From NCBI GenBank assembly GCA_035716005.1, contig DASTKG010000052.1, positions 6,360 to 70,359 on the forward strand: 64,000 bases of DNA. The letters are read 5' to 3'. Below are positions 1,201 through 64,000 of this stretch, piece after piece. Under the pieces are notes generated by a model. That model saw only the letters and a list, made by a program, of their open reading frames with translations. It was not told the DNA's origin and searched no databases. Position numbers and translations under genes: made by a program. The stretch's first letter is position 1, and every line of letters starts with the position of its first letter. Source of the stretch: Candidatus Eiseniibacteriota bacterium. GTDB taxonomy: Bacteria; Eisenbacteria; RBG-16-71-46; SZUA-252.

Positions 1201-3252
1201 CGGGACGCGAGCCGCCTTCCCGGACGCGCCGGCGGCGCCGCGGCGGCGTTCGCGGCGCGCGGGCGCGGGCTCGCCGCAGCGGTCGCAGCGCGTGAGGAGC
1301 CGAGACCGCTCGCAGTAGTCGATGGCGGCCTGCACGAACCACGCGTGCGCCGCCAGCGAGGGCACGGGGCCGGTGGTCCGTCCGCGGTAGGGATGGAGCC
1401 GCTCCGGCAGGAGGCCGATCCCCTCGGCCCGCGCCGCGGCCCAGAAGAGAAGCGTTCGGGCAACCTCCAGATCCTGAACCCGGCGCGCCGCGCGGGCCGC
1501 GTGGAGCGCGAGCCAGAGCGTCGCCGCGACGTTCGGGCTTCCCGGAACGTCGCCGCCCTCCGAGACGCCGCCCCCGACGCTTCCGACGAGATCCCCTTCG
1601 TAGCGCGCGACTCCGCCCGTGCCGGTCCGCACCCAGAGGCGCTCGCGCGCGTCCGCCACCGTCGCGCGGACGCGCGGATCCTCGGGCTCGAAGTCGTCGA
1701 GCAGGCCGACGAGGAGGAGCGACGCGTCGGCGGTCTCGTCCGTCCGCCACGCGTCGGCGCCCGGCGACTCCGGGGAGAGGGGCTGGAGGCCGCGACGGAA
1801 GGCGCCCGAAGCGCCCTTCGCCAGCGAGAGGGACATGGCGCGGGCGACGCGGTCGGCCGCGGCCGACCAGGCGCGAGCCCGCGCGGCCTCTCCGAGGAGC
1901 GCCGCCACGCGCGCCGCGCCGCGGAGTCCGCCGCGCACCGCGGCCGCCGCCGCCGCGTGGATTCCGGGCCGCTCGTTCCACCAGTCGAGAGAGCGGGGAA
2001 GCCCGTGCGTTTCCGCGTCGAGCGACCCGGCCAGCCGCTCGGCCGACGGCACGAGGAGCGGCTCCCACATCGTGGCCAGGAATTCGACGTCGCGATCGCG
2101 CTCGAGATGCCGGGCCGCGGCCCAGAGGTGGAGCGCGGCGCCGAAGACGCCCGCCTCGGGCTCGCCCGGCAGAGTGACCGCCTCGCCCGAGGGTTCGTAC
2201 GCCGCGGCGAGACGCCCCGCGCGACGCGCCGCGTCCGCGACGAAGGAGAAGTAGCGCCGGGCGGCGCCGTGATAGCCCGCGCGCCCGAGCGAGTCGGCCG
2301 CGATCGCGGCGTCGGCGATCCGGCACCAGCGGGTCTCGCCGTCGCCCGAGACGATCGCCCCCTCCGGCGTCTGATGAAGCCTCAGCGCGAGGAGGCTCGA
2401 CGCGTAGATCGATCCGATCAGCTCGGGCAGATCGGCGAAGTCGCGCGCCCCCTCGCTCGACCAGAGGGTCCAGTGACCTCTCGTCCGCGCGAGGGAGGCG
2501 GCGAGCCCGTCGCGGCGGAACGCCGCGTCGAGGGCGCGGACCTCCTCCGGGGTCGAGCCGCAGGCGAGCCACCCCGTCACCATGGCCGAATCTCCGGCGC
2601 CGAGCGGGAACGACACGCCGCCCACCGAATCGGCGAAGCCCGTCGCCTCGGCGCGCGGCCTCGATCCCGCGTCGAGCGCTTCCGCGTCCGCGCCGGGGCT
2701 CTCTTCCGCGGCGCGCGACACGGCGCGGACGAGCGGGACGCCGGTTCCGCCCGGGCCCTCGAGATTGAAGAGGATCGCGCGCCGGCCCGACGAGTGAAGC
2801 AGTCCGCCCGTTTCGGCGTCGCGCCGGACGCTCTCGTGCGGGCGTCCCGCGGCGAGGCGGAAGTCGTGATGGAAGTAGAGCGAGACCGCGCGATCGACCG
2901 AGCCCCGATTCGTGACCTGCACGCGCCGCACCACGACCGGAAGGCGCGCGTCGACGTAGCTCTCGATCCAGATTTCCATCTCGAGCTCGTGGCCGTCGTC
3001 GTCGCCCGGCGCCGAGAGCGAGACGTCCGCGATCGGCGCGTCGCCCGGCTCGCCGGGCCTCGCGGCGTATCGATCGGGGAGCCAGTGGAGAATGCCGTCG
3101 ACGGAGAGCCCGAGCCGCGCGGGACGTCGAAGCGACTGCGTCTCGGAGGAGAGGGAGGGAACGTAGAGCTCGAGGAGCGCGCCGCCGCGATCGCCCGTCG
3201 CGGTCAGCGATCCGTTTCCGATGAGAAACGCGCGCGCCAGTTTGGCCTCCAT
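1171..3252 (-). CDS. Glycoside hydrolase family 15-like (glucoamylase/glucodextranase-type) protein
   Basis: 693-aa ORF. The N-terminal region resembles a glucoamylase N-domain (FLIGNGSLTA...). The remainder is compatible with a large (alpha/alpha)6-type catalytic region (GHWTLWSSEG...). It sits divergent from the GT2 gene. Confidence 0.55.
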   Translation of the reverse strand: MEAKLARAFLIGNGSLTATGDRGGALLELYVPSLSSETQSLRRPARLGLSVDGILHWLPDRYAARPGEPGDAPIADVSLSAPGDDDGHELEMEIWIESYVDARLPVVVRRVQVTNRGSVDRAVSLYFHHDFRLAAGRPHESVRRDAETGGLLHSSGRRAILFNLEGPGGTGVPLVRAVSRAAEESPGADAEALDAGSRPRAEATGFADSVGGVSFPLGAGDSAMVTGWLACGSTPEEVRALDAAFRRDGLAASLARTRGHWTLWSSEGARDFADLPELIGSIYASSLLALRLHQTPEGAIVSGDGETRWCRIADAAIAADSLGRAGYHGAARRYFSFVADAARRAGRLAAAYEPSGEAVTLPGEPEAGVFGAALHLWAAARHLERDRDVEFLATMWEPLLVPSAERLAGSLDAETHGLPRSLDWWNERPGIHAAAAAAVRGGLRGAARVAALLGEAARARAWSAAADRVARAMSLSLAKGASGAFRRGLQPLSPESPGADAWRTDETADASLLLVGLLDDFEPEDPRVRATVADARERLWVRTGTGGVARYEGDLVGSVGGGVSEGGDVPGSPNVAATLWLALHAARAARRVQDLEVARTLLFWAAARAEGIGLLPERLHPYRGRTTGPVPSLAAHAWFVQAAIDYCERSRLLTRCDRCGEPAPARRERRRGAAGASGKAARVPSLPGIVADL

Positions 3253-50040: not shown

Positions 50041-52156
50041 GCGCCTCCTGCTCGAGATCGGCTGCGAGGAGCTGCCGGCGTCGTTCGTCGGGCCGGCCCT
50101 CGAGGAGCTGGAAGCGCTGGCGCGGGCGGGGCTCGCGGAAGCCCGTCTCTCGTTCGGAGCCGTTCGCGTCCTCGGCACGCCGCGCCGTCTGGCGCTTCTC
50201 GTCGAGGGGCTCGCCGAGCGCCAGGAGGACCGGACGCGGGAAGTGCTCGGCCCGGCCGTCCGCGTGGCCTACGACGCGAAGGGCGCTCCCACGAACGCCG
50301 CGGCGGGCTTCGCGAAGGGGGCCGGGGTTCCGGTGGAGTCGCTCGAGCGGGCCACGACGCCGAAGGGGGAGTACCTCATGGCGCGCGTGCACGACGTGGG
50401 GGAACCGTCGGCCAAGGTCCTGCCCGCGCTCCTCGTCTCCTGGATCACGGGAATTCACTTTCCGAAGACGATGCACTGGAACGCCACCGGGCGCTTCGCG
50501 CGTCCTGTCCGCTGGCTCGTCTCGCTCCTCGACGGGGATCTCCTCCCGCTGGAGTGTTTCGGAGTCGCCGCCGGCACCCGGTCGAGAGGGCACCGGACGC
50601 TCGCCCCGGGATGGGTCGAGATCGGGCGCCCCGAGCGCTACGTCGACGCTCTCCGCGACGCGGGGGTCGTCGTCGATCCCGCCGAGCGGCGACGCCGGAT
50701 CGAGGAGGAGCTGGCGAGCGCCGTGGTGCCGATCGGCGGGCGCGCGGTGGAGGACGCCGAGCTCCTCGACGAGGTGACGCAGCTCGTCGAGTGGCCCGAA
50801 GCGGTGGTCGGCTCGTTCGACTCGAAATACCTCCAGCTCCCGCGGCCGGTCGTCGTGACCGCCATGCGCGCCCATCAGCGCTACTTCGCCGTGGAGCGCC
50901 CCGACGGCTCGCTCCTCGGGAATTTCGTCATGATCCGGAGCGGCCGCGGCGACGGGGCCGACCAGGTGCGCCGCGGAACGCAGGCCGTCCTTCGAGCGCG
51001 GCTCGAGGACGCCCGGTTCTACTGGGAGAACGATCTGAAGGGCGGGCTCGAATCGAAGCTGGAGACACTCAAGGGAATCGTCTGGCACGAGAAGCTCGGG
51101 TCGATCTACGACCGCACGCAGCGTCTCGGATTTCTCGTCGACGACCTGGCCCGATCGCTCGCGCCGAACGCCCGCGCCGCCGCCTCCCGCGCCGCGCGGC
51201 TCTGCAAGGCCGATCTCGCGACCGAGATGGTCCGCTCGGGCAAGGAGTTCGCCACGCTCCAGGGGATCGTGGGCGCCGAGTACGCGGCGGCGACCGGCGA
51301 GCCCGAGGGCGTGGTCCGGGCGATTCGCGAGCACTACCTCCCGCAGGGGCCTTCCGACCCGCTTCCCGCGACCGTGGAGGGGACGCTCCTGAGTCTGGCC
51401 GATCGGATCGAGGCGATCGTCGGCGGGCTCAGGGCCGGCCTCGAGGTGACGGGCTCGCAGGACCCGTACGGGCTTCGCCGCGCGGGGAACGGGGTCGTGC
51501 GGATTCTCCTCGAGAAGCAGCTCCGTCTCGACGTGCTGGAAGTCGCGTCCCGACTCTCGGCGTACTTTGAGAAGTCGGGCGTCCCGGTCGACCCCAAGGC
51601 GGGCGACCTGGTCGCCTTCTGGGCCCAGCGGCTCGAGAGCGCGCTGGAGGAGCAGGGGGTGACCCACGACACGGCGGCGGCGGTTCTGGCCGTCCGTCCC
51701 GGGGATCCGCTCGACGTCCTGGCGCGGGCCCGCGCGATCGACGAGATCCGCCGGAGCGAGGACTTCGAGGGCCTCATGGTCGGCTACCGGCGGGCCGCGA
51801 ATCTCCTCCGCACGGCCAAACCGGGCGACATTTCCGGCTCGGGGTCGCCGCTGGCCGAGCGCGCCGAGAATTTCGGGGAGAAAGTGGAGGCCGATCTCCA
51901 CCTCGAGACGAAGATGGCGAGGCAAGCGGTGGAGACGCTCCTCCAGGGCGACGCGCCCGATTATCCCAAGGCGCTTCGGATCCTCCTCGGCCTCCGACCG
52001 CCGATTGACGGATTCTTCGACGGGGTGATGGTTATGGTAGACGACACCGTCGCTCGTCGGCGTCGCCTCGGACTCCTCGAAGAGGTCCGGCAGACGTTTC
52101 TACGAATAGCGGACTTCTCCGCCCTCCCGGCGGGCGCAGGTCAAAAAGCTACTTGA
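50033..52156 (+). CDS. glyS: Glycine--tRNA ligase beta subunit
   Basis: GlyS N-terminus ([12 protein letters not shown]). 707 aa. GTG overlaps the glyQ stop. Confidence 0.93.
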
Positions 52157-52181
52157 CACTAGCCGGTTTCTGACCTATACT
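52153..52181 (+). promoter_or_regulatory. Perfect-consensus sigma70 promoter TTGACA-N17-TATACT with upstream A5 tract
   Basis: -35 is at 52153..52158 and overlaps the glyS stop codon. -10 is at 52176..52181. An AAAAA tract lies 5 nt upstream of the -35. GC content drops sharply downstream. Confidence 0.65.
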
Positions 52182-52187
52182 GGGCGG

Positions 52188-52627
52188 GTAAAGGAGATAG
52201 AATAATCTGTCTCCAGACAGCCGCAACCGCTAGAACCGATTGATATTACAGCGAATGCACGACACCCGATGGGCTGACGGTGCGGCTCGCTTTGTCTTTG
52301 GGGTTACTCGCGTTCGGCGCGTTTTCGCTTATTCGAGAGATTGATGGTAAGGGGGTGAGAGGACAGAGCGCTCTCTGGCTACCACTCGATTTTTGAAGAA
52401 GTTATGGAATGTGGATCGATTCGACGAAATTCAAAAGAGAGAAAGGAGGTCGGTAGGATTTCTCGTGAAGGGTAAGTCCATCAGCGCTCGAACTGTCCCG
52501 AACGAGCGGACGAACCCGACGCAGCACTCCAGACTCAACTAGAATTACCGAATCCCGTGTCGTGAAGTTCCAGTTAGTCCTCCCGATCTAGGGCTCCGAG
52601 TCAGGAAACACTAAGGAGGATGTGACA
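52188..52627 (+). other. Long (~440 nt) low-GC 5' leader / possible small RNA upstream of the 1248-aa gene
   Basis: Lies between the consensus promoter and the AAGGAGGA RBS. It begins with an 8-bp stem-loop at 52194..52215 (GGAGAUAG-aauaau-CUGUCUCC). A short CGCG-uucgg-CGCG hairpin followed by UUUU sits at 52311..52327. There is no convincing ORF. Confidence 0.4.
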
Positions 52628-55600
52628 ATGCGGAAAACCTTGTTCGCCTTGCTGGGTCTCGTGGCGATCGGATCGTGGGCCGTCCCGGCCCTCGCCGGTG
52701 TCGCTTTCAACGACCCGCCCAAGGCGTTCGCGCCGATTCCGCTCGAGAATCGTGCGGGCGCTATCGGAGCAATGGCAAAGAGCGGCACCAATTACCAGGC
52801 CACGCTGAGCGGCACGCTCATCAAGCAGGCGTCGGCCACCACCTCGTGGTTCCTCTATCCGGGCGCTTGCACCGACCGTGCGAACAACACGTGGGTGCCT
52901 CGTACCGCGGTCCAGGCCGACTCGCTCAACTCGTACCTCGTCGGTTCGCAGGGCGGATACGGGCGTGCGGATCAGTCGCTTTCCGAGAAGCTGTTCCATA
53001 TCGTTAGCTCGGGCCTGCCGGTCGGCCAGAAGCCGAACGGCATCAACGGCACGAACGCGATCTGGGCCGGAAAGTACGACGCGAACTGGGTGAACCCGGT
53101 CGGCTATCCGAACCTCACGAACCAGATCCTTTACATCGATCTCGAGTCGAACCGGGCGCCGATCGCGGCGAACACCGGTACGTACACGATCACGATGAAG
53201 CTGAACAGCTCCACCGAGCAGAATTACGACTTCCTGTACTTCATCGGTGGCGGCGATGCCGACGCGAACAACTTCGGCGACGAAGATCCGCTCGGCAACG
53301 ACCGCGGCGGCTTCGACCAGGTTCGCTCGACCGGATCGTTCGACGCTGCCACGCTTCAGGCCACGCTCACCGGCTCCATCATCGCCACGACCTCGGGTCT
53401 CCTGCCGTTCATCAATGGCTCGGCGGGTCCGACGATCGTGGGCGAGGGCGGTTCGCAGCCGGCGACGGTCAACCTGAACTTCCACATGACGACGGACAAC
53501 CGTGCGTTCTACATCCTCTTCACCGCCGACTGTCTCTTCTCGAGCGAAGACGGCCTCTGGCCCTTCGGCACGGGCGTGACGATCGACGACCTCACGGTGT
53601 TCGACGGCAGCGTGACCCGTAACCTCTACGTCGACCAGACGGCTGCCGGCGGCTCGGACACGGTGGGTGGCGACATCCTCGTGGCCGATCCGATCACGGC
53701 GACCGAGACGGACGGCGTGCGCATCTCGGCCCGCGTGTTCCCCGGCAAGGGCGAGCTCTGGGCCATCCAGCAGGGCAGCAGCTACACCACGTCCGACATC
53801 TGCCAGACGCAGAAGAACGCCACCACGGACCGCTTCTTCCTGGGCGTCGACCCCGTGACCAAGAACGCGCTTCCCGGCCAGTTCAACTCGGTCGTGACGT
53901 GCACGTTCGCGGTGCCGGCCGGCACGGCCGACATCACGGCGCTCTGGGGCGAGTACCTGAACCTGCCGCGTACCACGGGCTACGTTCAGTACTCGGAGTA
54001 CCGCTACTTCAAGGACGGCTCCTGGTCCAACTGGGAGAATACGGCTGCCGGCGGCGGTGTCCGCACGTCGGTGATCGACCAGTGGGTGGTTGACGGCGAT
54101 CCGCTCGCCTCGGCCGTCCAGGCCGATTCGTTCCAGGTCCGCTACAACATTCAGTGCATCACGGCGTTCGCCGCTGACCGCACGAATTGCGACAACAACA
54201 CGCAGTACGCCGTGCTCTACGACGACCTGTTCCTGCAGGTCACGACGGGCGTTCCGGCGCCGGTGTTCGGTATCTTCCCGGGTTCGGTGGCGCAGTCGAC
54301 CTTCGTCGACGGCAACATGACCGGCTTGAACTGCACCGTCACGCCGTGCTGGCCTGGCATCCGTGGTTCGGACCTCCAGACCAACCCGAACGTCGACATC
54401 GCTCGTAGCGCGGTGAAGGACAATCTCAACTCGCCGCTCGGCGACTCGCTCACGATGTCCTTCGTGACCGGTCTCCGCAAGAACGGCATGGGCATCAACT
54501 GGCACTACGGTTACGACAAGTCTGTGAACGGCGGTCTCACCGTCGCGATCACGAACGGCGCGTACAACCCGGCGTTCGATACGCCTCGGGTGATCTACCG
54601 CCTGTTCGACCCGGCCTCGAAGACCTGGAGCCCGTGGGACTCGACGTCCCTCAACGGCAACAACGTCTCCGTCGCGGGCGACACGGTCGTCATCGACTCC
54701 GAGTACCGCTTGAACTGGCCGCCGGCCGACAAGGTTGGTCTCAACCTGCCGGGCGGATTCACGATCAACGGTCAGGGCGCCTACAACAACCTGGCGTTCC
54801 TCCCGCGCGGTACGCGGATGCAGTACTACTTCAAGGCGGTCGACATCAACGGCGGCGTCAGCTACCAGTTCACGACCGATGCGCTCTCGCGCGAGGTCGA
54901 GGACCTGCCGACGCTTCCGGGCAGCGCGAACATCGCTGCTGACATCGTCGAGTTCGACGTTCTCCCGCGCGTTTATCCGGCGGGCACGGCGGGGACGCTT
55001 GCGGCGGGTCGCACCGACACGCCGGTCCTGAATCTCGACGGCGCCTACTGTGGTTGGGGCTTCGGCCAGGATCCCGTCACCGCGGCTCTCCGCGGCATGG
55101 GCGTCCGCGCCGACCGGTACCGTCCTCTCGCGGCGATCGACGAGGGTCATCTCCTCGGCGGGCACGAACTCGCCCCCGATCGTCCGTCGCGTCAGAGCAA
55201 TTACTTCCCGAATAAGGATGAGTACGGGATCAAGGATTCGCTCGCGACGTGGTACCGCATCATGATCCAGAATTCGCACACCAGCACGGTCCCGTCGATC
55301 GACGAGTCCGCGGCTCAGCTCGTTTCCGACTGGGCGGCCACGGATACCGGCGCTAACGGCGGCGATCGCTGCATCTTCTTCTCGGGCGATGACGCCTTCA
55401 ACTCGCTGACCAACTCTCCGGTCGGCGTCCCCGGCGCCCGCAAGCTCGCGCTCTCGACGGCCGTCTTCGGCGTCGCGAACGTGGTGACGCTGGCTCCGAG
55501 CGCGGCGAAGGGCTCCTGGGCGGGTACGACCGGCAATGCGTATCCGACCATCGATGACCGCTTCGCGGCTCAGGCTTCCGGTCCTGGTCTCGCGGCCCCC

Positions 55601-56374
55601 GGTTCGTTCACCTACGAAGTCGACGGTGGATGCCCCGGTCCGAACCGCTTCGATCCTCTCACCCCGACGGGCGGTGCGGTTGCTGCGGCGACCTTCCCGG
55701 TCGCGGCGGGCGTGACGGACGTCGCGGGTGTGGCCAAGGCGAGCGAGCTCGACAACACGCCCGACCTCGACCAGACCAAGGCCCTCAGCTACGGTTACTC
55801 GATCCAGTTCGTGCGTGGCACCGCGGGCGTGATTCCGCGCAACGCGGCCAACTACGTGCGTTCGGGCGTCCAGAACCGCATGCAGATTCTCTACAAGTTC
55901 CTGACGGGTTGCCGCGGCGCTCGTGGTGCTGGCTCGCTCTGCTGGCCGTGCCCGACGGATGCCAACCTGATCAGCAACTGGCTCACGGCGCCGGGCTTCA
56001 ACACGGCGACCTACGGCCCGCTCTATCCGATTCAGGACTTCACGAAGGCGACGGGTGTCGAGGTCGAGGAAGCGTCCGCGGCTCCGCGGGTCAACCGCAT
56101 CTTCGGCAACAGCCCGAACCCCTTCAACCCGATGACCAAGATCTCGTTCAGTGCCGCGCAGGCGGGCAAGGTCACGATCCGTATCTTCAACGTGGCCGGC
56201 CAGCTCGTTCGCACCCTCGAGACCAAGGTTGAGACGCCCGGAACCGCGAGCGTCTACTGGGATGGCATGTCGGATCGCAACGTCAAGTCGGGCAGCGGCG
56301 TGTACTTCTACAAGGCCACGTTCGCCAACGGCACCACGTTGACGGCCGATCGCAGCATGGTGCTCGTGAAGTAA
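52628..56374 (+). CDS. Large secreted protein of unknown function with a T9SS-type (Por_Secre_tail-like) C-terminal sorting domain
   Basis: Signal peptide (LFALLGLVAIGSWAVPALAG). About 1150 aa with no recognised catalytic motif. The final ~85 aa match the T9SS C-terminal-domain pattern (NSPNPFNPMTKISFS..GKVTIRIFNVAGQLVRTL.....SGVYFYKA....MVLVK). The strong RBS AAGGAGGA lies 7 nt before the ATG. Confidence 0.8.
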   Translation: MRKTLFALLGLVAIGSWAVPALAGVAFNDPPKAFAPIPLENRAGAIGAMAKSGTNYQATLSGTLIKQASATTSWFLYPGACTDRANNTWVPRTAVQADSLNSYLVGSQGGYGRADQSLSEKLFHIVSSGLPVGQKPNGINGTNAIWAGKYDANWVNPVGYPNLTNQILYIDLESNRAPIAANTGTYTITMKLNSSTEQNYDFLYFIGGGDADANNFGDEDPLGNDRGGFDQVRSTGSFDAATLQATLTGSIIATTSGLLPFINGSAGPTIVGEGGSQPATVNLNFHMTTDNRAFYILFTADCLFSSEDGLWPFGTGVTIDDLTVFDGSVTRNLYVDQTAAGGSDTVGGDILVADPITATETDGVRISARVFPGKGELWAIQQGSSYTTSDICQTQKNATTDRFFLGVDPVTKNALPGQFNSVVTCTFAVPAGTADITALWGEYLNLPRTTGYVQYSEYRYFKDGSWSNWENTAAGGGVRTSVIDQWVVDGDPLASAVQADSFQVRYNIQCITAFAADRTNCDNNTQYAVLYDDLFLQVTTGVPAPVFGIFPGSVAQSTFVDGNMTGLNCTVTPCWPGIRGSDLQTNPNVDIARSAVKDNLNSPLGDSLTMSFVTGLRKNGMGINWHYGYDKSVNGGLTVAITNGAYNPAFDTPRVIYRLFDPASKTWSPWDSTSLNGNNVSVAGDTVVIDSEYRLNWPPADKVGLNLPGGFTINGQGAYNNLAFLPRGTRMQYYFKAVDINGGVSYQFTTDALSREVEDLPTLPGSANIAADIVEFDVLPRVYPAGTAGTLAAGRTDTPVLNLDGAYCGWGFGQDPVTAALRGMGVRADRYRPLAAIDEGHLLGGHELAPDRPSRQSNYFPNKDEYGIKDSLATWYRIMIQNSHTSTVPSIDESAAQLVSDWAATDTGANGGDRCIFFSGDDAFNSLTNSPVGVPGARKLALSTAVFGVANVVTLAPSAAKGSWAGTTGNAYPTIDDRFAAQASGPGLAAPGSFTYEVDGGCPGPNRFDPLTPTGGAVAAATFPVAAGVTDVAGVAKASELDNTPDLDQTKALSYGYSIQFVRGTAGVIPRNAANYVRSGVQNRMQILYKFLTGCRGARGAGSLCWPCPTDANLISNWLTAPGFNTATYGPLYPIQDFTKATGVEVEEASAAPRVNRIFGNSPNPFNPMTKISFSAAQAGKVTIRIFNVAGQLVRTLETKVETPGTASVYWDGMSDRNVKSGSGVYFYKATFANGTTLTADRSMVLVK

Positions 56375-60739: not shown

Positions 60740-61115
60740 ATGCACGTCTGGGCGACGGACTCTCAGGACGCGAAGCGGACGCACGAGGGCGTGGTCCGGG
60801 CGTTCGAGCACTTCGGCGGCGTGGTGCGCGAAGTGCCGGTGGACAACCAGAAGTGCGCGCCGCTCGATGATCGTCCCGGGAACGGCCGCGGTTCAACGAG
60901 CGGTTCCTCGACCTCGGCCACCACTACGCTACGTGATGCGGAACTTCTTCGTTCGCTACCGCGAGTTCGAGAGCTACGCCCACCTGAATCAGCTCCTCGA
61001 GCGGTGGTTGAGAGAGGAGGCCGATCCCCGGATCCACGGCACCGTGCGGGAAGTGGTGGCGGCGCGGTTTCTCCGGGAGGCGCCGACGCTCACGCCGCCC
61101 CCTGGAGACCTATGA
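60740..61115 (+). pseudogene. istA: istA (IS21 transposase) C-terminal fragment, multiple frameshifts and internal deletion
   Basis: See the mobile-element entry. The segments are in frames 1, 0 and 2 in turn, with an in-frame stop after HHYAT. Confidence 0.7.
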
Positions 61116-61127
61116 GGAGGTGGCGAC

Positions 61128-61632
61128 GTGGAATTGACCACCTTCCTCGAACGGATGAAGCGGGAGCATCCGGCCGCGCGGATCGACAGCGTCTGCGAGC
61201 AGGCCGCGGGACAGGACCTCGACTACAAGAGGTTCCTCGCCCAGGCCCTGGTGACGGAATGCCAGGGCCGATTCCGTCGGGGGATCGAGGCCCGCGGGAA
61301 GCTGGCGCGGTTCCCCTGGATCAAGGCCCCTCGACCAGTTCGACTTCGACTTCCAGCCGAGCCTCGATCGGAAGATCGTGCGCGAGCTCGCCTGGCTCTC
61401 CGTCGTCGAGCGGGCGCACAACGTGGTGCTCCTCGGCCCGCCGGGCGTCGGCAAGACGGACCTGGCCATCTCGCTGGGGATGAACGCGGTCGAGGCAGGC
61501 TACTCTGTCCTGTTCCTCACCCTGGAGCAATTGATGACCCGGCTCACGCGGGCTCGGCAGGAGAACCGGCTCGAGCGCGCGCTTCAGCAGCATGTGTATC
61601 CCAGAGTGCCGATCCTCGACGAGCTCGGCTAG
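61128..61632 (+). pseudogene. istB: istB (IS21 helper ATPase) fragment, frameshift near 61325 and truncation after ILDELG
   Basis: Walker A GPPGVGKT is in a different frame from the N-terminal MELTTFLERMK segment. The C-terminal ~80 aa are missing. Confidence 0.7.
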
Positions 61633-61779
61633 GGCTAGAGCTGCCGGCTGAAGGAGAAACGCCGGGCCGGCCTTCTCGGCCAAATCCCCCAGCGCCAGCC
61701 CGAGGAGGTTGCCACGGCGGGACGATCGCATCGGCGATCAGGGGACAAAATCGTCGGCGATCGGGGGTGTGACGCGGTG

Positions 61780-61821
61780 GCCGACAAGGAAACGGCCGCG
61801 GAGCCGAGGCCCCGCGGCCGT
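61780..61821 (-). terminator. Rho-independent terminator for the minus-strand PD40/T9SS-CTD gene
   Basis: On the minus strand: ACGGCCGCGG-loop-CCGCGGCCGU followed by UUUCCUUGUCGG, 29 nt after the stop. Confidence 0.55.
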
Positions 61822-61849
61822 TCGTGCTTCTGTTACGAGTGGCTCTGGC

Positions 61850-63706
61850 TTACTTCGCCATCACCATCTTGACGACGTCGGACGTGATCTCGCTGCCCTT
61901 GCCGTCGCCGACCGAAGCCTTCGCGAAGTAGATACCCGAAGCAGCCTTCGCGCCGGTGCTGGTCGAACCATCCCACGCAGCCTCGTGCGAACCGGTCCCG
62001 TAGTTGCCGCTGGCGACGGTCTTCACGAGCTCGCCGCGCACGTTGTAGACGCGGACGTTCACGAAGCCGGGCTTGGCGACCGAGAAGCGGATCTTGGTCA
62101 CGGGGTTGAAGGGATTCGGCGAGTTCTGCTCGAGACGAACCACCTGGCCGGCCGCGTTGTTGGACGAGAGCTTGAGGTAGCCGTAGCCCTGGAACTGGCG
62201 GCCGCGGGTGCTCGAGTAAGCGGTAACCGGGCAGATGACGGTCTGATTGACGAGACCGAGAGCGACAAGGCGAGCCTCGACCGTCTTACGGTTGAGCTGC
62301 ATGATCGTCTCGTATTCCCCGCCGTTGACCTGGTTCGTCATCGCGGCGAACGGCGCACCGTTCACGGCCGAGGTCGGTCCAGGCTGGCCGAGGAAGGTCG
62401 GGCTGATGATGATCGAGTTGCGGTTCTTGATGCCCTCGTGTCCGGCCGGAATGCCGATGAAGCCCTTGTCGTCGACGTCGGCGACGGCCACGAATCCGGC
62501 GGCCTGCGTCTCGGCGGGCATGCTGATCGTCACGTTGAGATTCCCGCCATTGCTGCCCAAGTTGAGGGTCGTCGGGCTGATCGCGACGCCGAGCGGGAGA
62601 GCCGGGAAGCAGTTGTTCGCGCTGGCACGCCAGATGCCGAGACCGAAGTTGGCGCCCTGGCTGGAGCAGAGGAACAGGTTGTACGGGTTGCCGTCGAGGT
62701 TGAAGTTCGTCAGGGACGAGACATCCGGATCGGCGTCGCCGCGATTGTCGAAGAAGATGTCGCACTTCGACTGCGTCGCGAGGTCGAGCTTGAAGATGTC
62801 GGTGTTGTTGTTGATGTCCTCGCCCTGCGGAGCGTCATAGAAGATCGACGCGCCGTCGGACGACCACGACGGGTTGTTGTGCGAAATCGAGGCGAAATTC
62901 GTCTCGGCGAGGTAGAACGTGCCCGGAGCGTTGAGGTCGGCGATCTCGATCACGTTGCGGCCGAACTTGTTGGTCGCGTACGCGATCAGATTGTTGGGAC
63001 CCCACGTCGGGTTGATTTCCGACCGGGCGTCGTTCGTGGTGGCGCGCGCCGGGACGCCGACCGTGGCGGTCGGAACGTCGACCGAGACGTACCAGATGTC
63101 GGTCGAAGGACCCGCCGCGTTCGACGCGTAGCAGAGCGCCGTGCCGTCCGGCTTCCAATCGGGGGTGCGATTGATGACGCCGGGGGCGGCCGGGACGACG
63201 AGCAGGGGCGAACCGACCGGGGTCGTCGCGGCGAGCGTGGTCGTTCCGGTCATGTACTCCTGGACGTAGATCGCCGACTGCGTGATCTGGCCGTCCGTCT
63301 GCACGTACGCGAGGTACTTGCCGTTCGGGCTCCACGCCGGATCCGTGTAGGAGACCATGGCGGCGGGATCAAGGAGCATCGGACGACGAGCGTCCATAAT
63401 GTCGGCCACCGAGAAGCCGATCTGAGCGGCATTCTGGCCGAGCCAGATCGAACGAACGGTTTCGCTGCCGACCACGGTGCTGCGGGTGGAGAACGAGTAC
63501 CAGCGCTCGGTCTGCGCATGGCCGCCGTTCGCCCGGATATTGGCGTTGCGGAGCGACGGCTGCTCGCAGCCGTTCGCGAGGCCTGTGTTGAACGGTGCAC
63601 CATTCGTGAGGGGATCCCAGACCCCACGAAGGGCCGCACTCGCATGTACCGGCACGAGCGCGAAGAAGAGCGCCAGCAGCACGGTCACACCTAGCAGTTT
63701 CTTCAT
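61850..63706 (-). CDS. Secreted PD40/TolB-like beta-propeller protein with T9SS-type C-terminal sorting domain
   Basis: Signal peptide (MKKLLGVTVLLALFFALVPVHASA). PD40-like repeats (YTDPAWSPNGKYLAYV; NRTPDWKPDGTALCYASN; EINPTWGPNNLIAYATN; HNNPSWSSDGASIFYDA). The C-terminal ~90 aa match the T9SS C-terminal-domain pattern (NSPNPFNPVTKIRFSV..PGFVNVRVYNVRGELVKTV....SGIYFAKA....MVMAK). Confidence 0.85.
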   Translation of the reverse strand: MKKLLGVTVLLALFFALVPVHASAALRGVWDPLTNGAPFNTGLANGCEQPSLRNANIRANGGHAQTERWYSFSTRSTVVGSETVRSIWLGQNAAQIGFSVADIMDARRPMLLDPAAMVSYTDPAWSPNGKYLAYVQTDGQITQSAIYVQEYMTGTTTLAATTPVGSPLLVVPAAPGVINRTPDWKPDGTALCYASNAAGPSTDIWYVSVDVPTATVGVPARATTNDARSEINPTWGPNNLIAYATNKFGRNVIEIADLNAPGTFYLAETNFASISHNNPSWSSDGASIFYDAPQGEDINNNTDIFKLDLATQSKCDIFFDNRGDADPDVSSLTNFNLDGNPYNLFLCSSQGANFGLGIWRASANNCFPALPLGVAISPTTLNLGSNGGNLNVTISMPAETQAAGFVAVADVDDKGFIGIPAGHEGIKNRNSIIISPTFLGQPGPTSAVNGAPFAAMTNQVNGGEYETIMQLNRKTVEARLVALGLVNQTVICPVTAYSSTRGRQFQGYGYLKLSSNNAAGQVVRLEQNSPNPFNPVTKIRFSVAKPGFVNVRVYNVRGELVKTVASGNYGTGSHEAAWDGSTSTGAKAASGIYFAKASVGDGKGSEITSDVVKMVMAK

Positions 63707-63844
63707 TCCTTCATCTCCTCTCTAACGCGGGTAAAATCGAGAAGACACCTCAAGAGGATAAGGTAGACGACAGTCTGAGCCCGATCACCTCCTTATTAAC
63801 TCAGCTTTCAGAGTGACTCTAAAGTGATGTAATTACAAGCAATC

Positions 63845-63860
63845 GGGAACACGTGTTCCC
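63845..63860. promoter_or_regulatory. Perfect 16-bp palindrome GGGAACACGTGTTCCC (candidate operator)
   Basis: Positioned at about +11..+26 relative to the predicted minus-strand transcription start, inside the 5' leader of the 61850..63706 gene. Confidence 0.5.
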
Positions 63861-63877
63861 GCTTTCACACTCCAAGT

Positions 63878-63907
63878 AGTATACGCGTCCGATCGATGAA
63901 GTGTCAA
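63878..63907 (-). promoter_or_regulatory. Consensus sigma70 promoter (minus strand) TTGACA-N18-TATACT with upstream A5 tract
   Basis: Reverse complement of 63902..63907 is TTGACA. Reverse complement of 63878..63883 is TATACT. TTTTT at 63912..63916 supplies the A-tract. The promoter sits ~170 nt upstream of the CDS start. Confidence 0.6.
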
Positions 63908-63951
63908 GCAGTTTTTGGAAATCGTGACCGCCCCTCCCACCCAAAAACGTC

Positions 63952-63980
63952 TTGACACTCCACCACTTGGAGCCTAGTCT
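63952..63980 (+). promoter_or_regulatory. Divergent sigma70-like promoter AAAAAcgtcTTGACA-N17-TAGTCT reading out of the window
   Basis: Back-to-back with the minus-strand promoter. It has the same A-tract/TTGACACT architecture as the promoters at 52153 and 63907. Confidence 0.45.
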
Positions 63981-64000
63981 GCGGCCAGGGTCAGGCTCCG

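Follow-up and report, generated by a model that had tools for sequence, protein, structure and literature searches.

The window analysed here, a stretch of 64,000 nucleotides (nt) from a member of Candidatus Eisenbacteria (assembly GCA_035716005.1, contig DASTKG010000052.1, positions 6,360 to 70,359 of the forward strand), ends in a gene for a secreted protein that is preceded by a near-consensus promoter, a long messenger RNA (mRNA) leader and, within the leader, a perfect palindrome. Candidatus Eisenbacteria is an uncultured phylum, widespread in soil and sediment, and we know of nothing on gene regulation in it. The gene lies on the minus strand at 61850..63706 and encodes a protein of 618 amino acids (aa), as read from the list of open reading frames (ORFs), Pfam, NCBIfam and its homologs. 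The protein is predicted to consist of a signal peptide, a TolB/Tricorn-like PD40 beta-propeller and a C-terminal FlgD_ig-like sorting domain of type A of the type IX secretion system (T9SS). PD40 and FlgD_ig are both above their Pfam cut-offs, TIGR04183, the NCBIfam model of the T9SS type A sorting domain, gives 29.6 bits where 23 is the cut-off, and matches to TolB-like propellers were found; Pfam Por_Secre_tail, at 19.3, is below its cut-off of 27. The description of 61850-63907 in an earlier note on this DNA, as a T9SS-tagged beta-propeller gene, is borne out by these matches. The N-terminus MKKLLGVTVLLALFFALVPVHASA resembles a signal peptide by inspection, and with this and a sorting domain above a curated cut-off the protein is a predicted T9SS cargo. 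It has 170 homologs, mostly in Eisenbacteria metagenome-assembled genomes; a protein of 100% identity (P0001) is annotated in one of these, on a contig of 91.6 kb.

The upstream region was compared across 30 distinct orthologous promoter-leader sequences with protein identity down to 40%. Nine of the loci, with protein identities from 82% down to 40%, were reached through protein look-ups, and one, L006 (64%), was the sole true ortholog from a scan of genome contigs with a generic T9SS tail motif; the remaining loci came from one metagenome scan with a 19-nt core of the leader. That scan gave 75 matches, about 40 of which precede orthologs of the 618-aa gene, the other 35 or so being chance matches inside unrelated coding sequences. 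Identity figures for the 3′ leader and the coding sequence are mean pairwise values over the 19 complete loci, a set in which protein identity is 0.51. A profile search of about 1 Mb with nhmmer returned one match to the leader per ortholog locus and one in the window (63871..63696) and nothing else, and the non-syntenic paralogs L086 and L091 have no leader of this kind. The leader element is gene-specific, single-copy and confined to syntenic orthologs, and the idea that it is a regulon motif was rejected, as both the metagenome scan and the profile placed it solely before orthologs. The promoter is ordinary in kind; the leader is a conserved cis-acting element of the 5′ untranslated region (UTR) that matches no curated RNA family.

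Promoter pair and predicted transcript of the 618-aa gene

The −35 hexamer of the promoter, here called P1, is TTGACA at 63902..63907 on the minus strand and is invariant in 30 of 30 orthologous loci; the −10 hexamer at 63878..63883, on the same strand, is TATACT in 29 of these and TATAAT in L167. As a whole, TTGACA-N18-TATACT matches the consensus at 11 of 12 positions. The earlier note described it as rare perfection in this GC background, but promoter-like sites at the scan threshold occur at close to the expected frequency (2 found in 14 kb, 1.3 expected). P1 stands above chance because the hexamers and their distance are conserved while the sequence between them drifts: the spacer is always exactly 18 nt in the 30 loci, with 52% identity and one of its 18 columns invariant. 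Immediately upstream of the −35 lies an A-tract, CCAAAAAC (63912..63916, minus strand), in which CCAAAAA is invariant in the alignments and which we take to be UP-element-like. Judged by its conservation in 30 loci, P1 is well supported as a real, strong sigma-70-type promoter. Sequence and conservation likewise agree with the proposal that the elements at 63878..63907 drive the gene.

A divergent look-alike at 63952..63980, also reported before, is present and conserved in orthologs. This promoter, P2, lies on the plus strand and consists of TTGACA (63952..63957), a 17-nt spacer and TAGTCT (63975..63980), with an A-tract of its own upstream (63943..63947, plus strand). In orthologs its TTGACA is invariant, its −10 is of the form TAnnnT, and it precedes a divergent gene that is T9SS-tagged. 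P1 and P2 are mirror images which form a 31-nt imperfect inverted repeat, 77% complementary, at 63888..63971 of the window; the centre is a variable GC-rich core of 22 nt, and the whole control region is one large dyad. The earlier suggestion of a bidirectional control region to which the palindrome might belong is retained for the back-to-back promoters, but not for the palindrome as their operator.

From promoter geometry, transcription from P1 is predicted to start at 63871 (minus strand), an A located 7 nt past the −10, where AG is conserved. This start gives a leader of 165 nt in the window, which agrees with the length of about 165 nt estimated previously, and of 160-166 nt in every ortholog. 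At the other end of the gene, a predicted intrinsic terminator at 61786..61823 (minus strand) has a GC-rich stem of about 15 bp followed by UUUCCUU; it folds at −37 kcal/mol (z = −3.1) and was also flagged in the terminator scan. In many of the homolog clusters of the 618-aa protein the longest contig is near 2.0 kb, and five contigs of 2003-2033 nt (L111, L134, L136, L163 and L166) have their first base at +15 to +43 and their last one 14-28 nt beyond the stop codon. These look like assembled monocistronic transcripts of an abundant mRNA, although we treat this as a hint; none of the five begins upstream of +1, which is a weak hint on the start site.

Six other contigs (L105, L132, L138, L158, L116 and L151) end at +63 to +76, just upstream of the most conserved block of the leader. 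This is likely due to collapse of the assembly graph where co-occurring strains share an identical leader. Transcript ends were considered for these positions and rejected, as the cluster includes plainly genomic contigs.

Palindrome and conserved 3′ leader

The palindrome is present as reported at 63845..63860 (16 bp, GGGAACACGTGTTCCC), but it extends further: the full perfect palindrome is an 18-mer, CGGGAACACGTGTTCCCG (63844..63861, minus strand), which corresponds to +11 to +28 of the leader. As RNA it reads CGGGAAC-ACGU-GUUCCCG, a stem of 7 bp with a loop of 4 nt. Perfect palindromes of at least 16 bp number 7 in the window against 4.2 ± 2.2 in dinucleotide shuffles, and those of at least 18 bp number 5 against 1.2 ± 1.3, with 65% of shuffles containing at least one. 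Since bare perfect palindromes are not beyond chance, any significance of this one must rest on its position and conservation. A search for further copies, as had been proposed, found the exact sequence solely at the orthologous spot of one close relative, within the window and about 1 Mb of related loci, and the CGGG-N10-CCCG core occurs in the window as often as expected (9 found, 9.3 expected). Four other perfect GC-rich palindromes of 18-24 bp lie at 1851, 18927, 24578 and 45577.

A perfect palindrome beside a consensus promoter looked operator-like, yet the comparison shows it to be the least constrained piece of the region: the 30-nt bin that contains it is the least conserved of the intergenic region, at 0.61 identity. 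Across orthologs only G12 and G13 and C26 and C27 (leader numbering) are invariant. The centre differs even in the closest relatives (ACGT, AGTT or AGGT) while the arms stay, so the perfect symmetry of 16-18 bp is partly an accident of the loop. The upper stem changes with compensation, AAC/GTT becoming AAA/TTT in L006 (a C-G pair replaced by A-U) and AC/GT in L152 and L164 (A-U replaced by C-G), and the spacing from GGG to CCC is 9 or 10 nt, with a bulge in some clades. Despite these differing sequences, predictions put a hairpin of 3-7 bp at the matching position in 28 of the 30 leaders, with a folding energy of −11.7 kcal/mol in the window and of −4.8 to −11.8 kcal/mol in the others. Every wobble pair in the stem, in 14 cells, is a G.U on the sense strand, with zero A.C, which fits a stem in mRNA better than a dyad in DNA. 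It is this pattern of variation, and not the statistics, that suggests an RNA stem-loop, and on it the palindrome is most likely a small, lineage-specific, 5′-proximal stem-loop of the mRNA. Two further ideas arose by eye and were dropped: pairing of CCCGAU with a downstream AUCGGG, which is unsupported in L006 or L089, and readings of the palindrome as an extracytoplasmic function (ECF) sigma (GGAAC) or sigma-54 site, whose motifs are not conserved.

The conservation lies instead in the 3′ part of the leader, the 88 nt at 63707..63794 (minus strand) up to the start codon. Identity over these 3′ 90 nt or so is 0.89, against 0.61 for the coding sequence and 0.75 for its best 90-nt window (the T9SS tail motif); it is also 0.89 in the nine loci that were found without a DNA pattern, and 65 of 92 alignment columns are invariant. 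The block opens with an orphan Shine-Dalgarno (SD)-like sequence, AAGGAGGTGAT, at 63784..63794 (minus strand), about 77 nt upstream of the ATG and unique in the window. Within it AGGAGGTGAT is invariant in 30 of 30 leaders, and the preceding base is A in 29 and G in L168. This 10-11-mer is the exact complement of the canonical 3′ tail of bacterial 16S rRNA. No ATG, GTG or TTG is conserved 4-12 nt past the orphan SD in the leaders. A leader peptide was considered and rejected: the possible start, at 14 nt, varies (CTG, GTG or TTG), 7 of the 30 leaders have lost the stop, the ORF is absent in L167, and the candidate peptide is not conserved where nucleotides vary, so that there is no conserved upstream ORF. 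Judged from the aligned leaders, the orphan SD is predicted not to start translation. The true SD, GAGGAG at 63715..63720 (minus strand), is 8 nt before the ATG and present in all leaders.

RNAalifold predicts that the orphan SD pairs with the pyrimidine tract GUCGUCUACCUU (63760..63771, minus strand) in helix H2, and that the true SD pairs with an anti-SD-like UCUUCUC (63739..63745, minus strand), itself of low predicted accessibility, in helix H4; predicted accessibility is low for both SDs. In H2, 98.5% of cells are paired and 7 of 7 one-sided changes keep the pairing, and the few columns of the 3′ leader that vary are located in predicted loops. The partner strand of H2 varies in L167 and L169 and the orphan SD does not, suggesting that this motif is constrained by more than its pairing in cis. 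Invariance of sequence without covariation fits either a conserved trans partner or bases that are shared between exclusive folds. Rfam gave no match at the gathering threshold in the window, and nothing credible at E ≤ 10 in the leaders of the window or of L167.

Interpretation of the leader

The explanation that we consider best, with a probability of roughly 0.55, is that the locus combines a promoter pair with an mRNA leader module, in which the palindrome is a hairpin and not an operator and the 3′ leader acts post-transcriptionally. The anatomy of the locus, its conservation pattern, its gene specificity and the lack of operator-like conservation are shown by the comparison. The locus would thus be a conserved module that expresses a major secreted T9SS cargo of Candidatus Eisenbacteria. 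Its mirror-image sigma-70-type promoters P1 and P2, each with an upstream A-tract, would fire divergently, and P1 would give a monocistronic mRNA of about 2.05 kb that carries the long leader and ends at the strong terminator, the gene being highly expressed. The palindrome would be what a small stem-loop of the mRNA, at about +11 to +28, looks like in DNA; the GGG/CCC base of this stem-loop would be ancestral, and its perfect 7-bp stem and chance self-complementary ACGU loop would be peculiar to the clade of the window. If active at all, this stem-loop would be a dispensable 5′-proximal stabilising hairpin; the module cannot depend on it, since L167 and L169 have next to no hairpin. In the 3′ leader, the orphan SD (AAGGAGGUGAU) would pair alternatively with the cis pyrimidine tract or with the 16S rRNA 3′ tail, and the second pyrimidine tract would sequester the true SD. 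Control would then be post-transcriptional, through docking of the 30S subunit (for mRNA protection or standby) and/or regulated occlusion of the SD. Only tentatively can the further step be taken that the 3′ leader may represent an undescribed, Eisenbacteria-specific class of cis-regulatory RNA, in which the orphan SD docks 30S or toggles between cis anti-SD mimics, and so sets the stability and translation of the mRNA of the phylum's flagship T9SS cargo, and in which the sequence is kept more tightly than the protein because each base has two exclusive partners.

In this scheme we infer where transcription starts, how the RNA folds and by what mechanism the leader acts, and a number of results weigh against it. 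The start of P1 is a prediction from promoter geometry. The deepest orthologs, L167 and L169, have essentially no hairpin (−1.8 and −1.4 kcal/mol), with promoter, leader length and 3′ leader intact. Covariation in the hairpin does not reach significance: 79.3% of its cells are paired, which is the shuffle mean, pairs with double-sided changes number 2 against 1.9 in shuffles, and the only universal pairs never vary and are uninformative. The hairpin begins about 10 nt from the predicted 5′ end, which for stabilisers of the Escherichia coli ompA type is further than is effective there. In the 3′ leader, there are no double-sided changes in H2 and H4, where the sequence is too invariant, and the predicted folding energy of the leader is no better than that of shuffles (z = −0.34). 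The orphan SD is mostly paired in the prediction (unpaired probability 0.31), which would be as compatible with a structural function as with docking. Its complementarity was judged on the canonical bacterial 16S tail.

For the palindrome itself, the earlier note had proposed the operator of a repressor roadblock, that is, a site for a dimeric repressor which would block RNA polymerase just past the start, maybe through recognition of the CGGG...CCCG half-sites only. The perfect 18-bp dyad at +11 to +28 and the GG/CC that are invariant in 30 orthologs speak for such a site, and the lack of significant covariation in the RNA stem is compatible with a DNA-level reading. We nevertheless regard it as improbable, given that the half-site spacing varies between 9 and 10 nt with bulges in some clades, that the centre and the arms beyond GGG/CCC are unconserved, that the dyad is lost in L167 and L169 and that the site falls in the least conserved bin. 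Palindromes of such size are expected by chance, the half-site core is at chance frequency, and in the loci compared the sequence is neither conserved in orthologous promoters nor found in a second copy elsewhere in the window or the 1 Mb of related loci. No DNA-binding regulator gene lies within about 19 kb of the site on the window side, in keeping with the earlier observation, and none is conserved beside the locus among the syntenic orthologous loci. A more specific form of the same idea can hardly be credited at all: GAACACGTGTTC at 63847..63858 fits GAAC-N4-GTTC, the LexA (Cheo) box consensus of Gram-positive bacteria, and would make the palindrome an SOS box. This motif occurs 3 times in the window against 1.27 expected (12 of 100 shuffles reach 3), a secreted surface protein would be an unexpected SOS gene, and the box is lost in orthologs, being GAAA-N4-TTTC in L006 and GGAC... 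or GGCT... elsewhere, so that the reading is effectively refuted by non-conservation in L006 and all more distant orthologs. Nearly as implausible is a transcription attenuator or terminator just past the start; the terminator scan does flag the 7-bp stem and the AUUGCUUGUA that follows it, but the U-rich tail is not conserved (it is CCCGAUUCCAAACC in L087, for example) and many orthologs have a weak stem or none. More serious, though still unlikely, is that the palindrome has no function of its own and is a chance dyad in a variable 5′ leader, with GGG/CCC kept for the initially transcribed sequence or for long-range pairing, for example. Its size is within chance expectation, no bin is less conserved than the one that holds it, the deepest orthologs have no hairpin and covariation is not significant, all of which this account would explain; what it leaves aside is that a hairpin of 3-7 bp is predicted at one position in 28 of 30 leaders, with some compensatory changes and with wobbles specific to the sense strand.

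The stem-loop thus remains our preferred reading of the palindrome, and the 3′ leader has a competitor of a different kind, namely that it is a switch on the true SD that responds to a ligand, temperature, a protein or a small RNA (a riboswitch, RNA thermometer or CsrA-type operator), with the orphan SD serving as an anti-anti-SD and not for 30S docking or stability. In the predicted fold UCUUCUC pairs with the true SD, G.U pairs included, and the other pyrimidine tract with the orphan SD. There are four mutually complementary purine and pyrimidine segments, whose bases may serve two alternative pairings; such dual pairing of each base could explain invariance without covariation. GGA motifs are located at the orphan SD, at the true SD and beside the AUG. 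Set against this are the same absence of covariation, a folding energy no better than in shuffles and the lack of a match to an Rfam family, and an anti-anti-SD would not need the whole 10-11-mer that complements the 16S tail to be invariant. A switch of this type is possible, if doubtful, and docking or standby on the one hand and an SD-occluding switch on the other cannot be separated here.

Among known systems, the leader appears similar in its logic to STAB-SD and to 5′ stem-loop stabilisers, but differs from them in distance from the 5′ end. The STAB-SD of cry3A was reportedly the work of Agaisse and Lereclus in 1996. It is an orphan SD of Bacillus thuringiensis which stabilises the mRNA through 30S binding (reviewed in PMC4113751). 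As in the Eisenbacteria leader, an SD-like sequence lies in a long 5′ UTR, the major cry3A transcript starting 129 nt before the start codon (PMC4113751). Both leaders share a motif complementary to the 16S 3′ end that is without a translation start, and cry3A is very highly expressed, as is proposed for the 618-aa gene. The STAB-SD is however close to the 5′ end of the stable transcript, whereas the Eisenbacteria motif is about 78 nt from the predicted start and is embedded in about 90 nt of invariant sequence; STAB-SD also needs the 5′-3′ exonuclease RNase J1 and is from Firmicutes, not from the FCB group. The 5′ UTR of E. coli ompA and the leader of Bacillus subtilis aprE carry 5′-terminal stem-loop stabilisers within a few nt of the 5′ end. 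They resemble the present leader in having a small hairpin near the 5′ end of a long leader in the mRNA of an abundant envelope or secreted protein; here, by contrast, a single-stranded A-rich tail of about 10 nt precedes the hairpin, which is weak or absent in part of the family. ROSE and fourU are RNA thermometers, or translational operators, which sequester the SD. As in these, a helix with G.U pairs is predicted between the true SD and a U/C-rich tract upstream of it; unlike them, the leader has no Rfam match, a much longer invariant sequence and no thermodynamic signal. P1 may be likened to rrnB P1, a strong sigma-70 promoter with an UP element, in having a −35 that fits the consensus, a −10 that nearly does and an A-tract immediately before the −35; it differs in a spacer of 18 rather than 17 and in that two mirror-image promoters share a variable core of about 22 bp. 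The LexA (Cheo) box, as noted above, is present as a motif inside the palindrome of the window but is unconserved in orthologs.

What the locus yields is a promoter architecture defined by phylogenetic footprinting (TTGACA-N18-TATACT preceded by an A-tract), evidence for canonical SD-anti-SD pairing in this lineage, and a candidate for a new leader RNA, with higher conservation than its own gene. If the orphan SD works like a STAB-SD, the FCB superphylum would join the range of a mechanism so far linked to Firmicutes and RNase J. Once relatives are cultured, the promoter and leader together would also be a natural choice of cassette for expressing genes in them.

Neighbourhood of the locus

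In orthologous loci a divergent gene lies about 390-440 nt away from the gene for the 618-aa protein; in the window it falls beyond base 64000. It is seen in L001, L004, L087, L090 and L167-L169 and encodes a protein of about 300-330 aa (423 aa in L087), which is T9SS-tagged where tested (L001 and L004; TIGR04183). The gene immediately beyond 64000, which the earlier note had marked for inspection, can thus be read from syntenic orthologs as one for a divergent T9SS-tagged protein of this size. Past it in orthologs there is an aldehyde dehydrogenase, and asparaginase II and PPDK follow where the locus is long enough. The divergent gene apparently has a leader of about 150-170 nt too (L001 5560..5790, with equivalents in L004, L006 and L087), with conserved islands formed by a run of C8 and by AAGGGGA-N6-ATG at a start downstream of the called one; the called start codon may therefore be wrong.

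To the left of the 618-aa gene the window contains recO, glyQ, glyS, three large secreted proteins (one of them T9SS-tagged) and a remnant of an IS21-family element. This remnant, at 60740..61772 on the plus strand, lies between a 759-aa gene and the terminator of the 618-aa gene and includes a truncated fragment of the IstB ATPase at 61378..61632 (92 bits). An apparent IstA-type residue upstream of the IstB fragment was seen by eye only and has no Pfam match. In the syntenic locus L004 the position of the remnant is occupied by an unrelated ORF of 273 aa.

A second promoter with 11 of 12 consensus positions, TTGACA-N17-TATACT, is located at 52153..52181 on the plus strand and has the same CAAAAA tract upstream. 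It is followed by a non-coding leader of about 440 nt and low GC content (0.58), in the region to 52621, and then by a T9SS-tagged protein of 1250 aa at 52622..56374; 52153..52621 may be another long regulatory leader of a like expression style. Lastly, a tRNA-like sequence was seen, in the alignment only, upstream of the non-syntenic paralog P0043 (L091, about 2720..2800).

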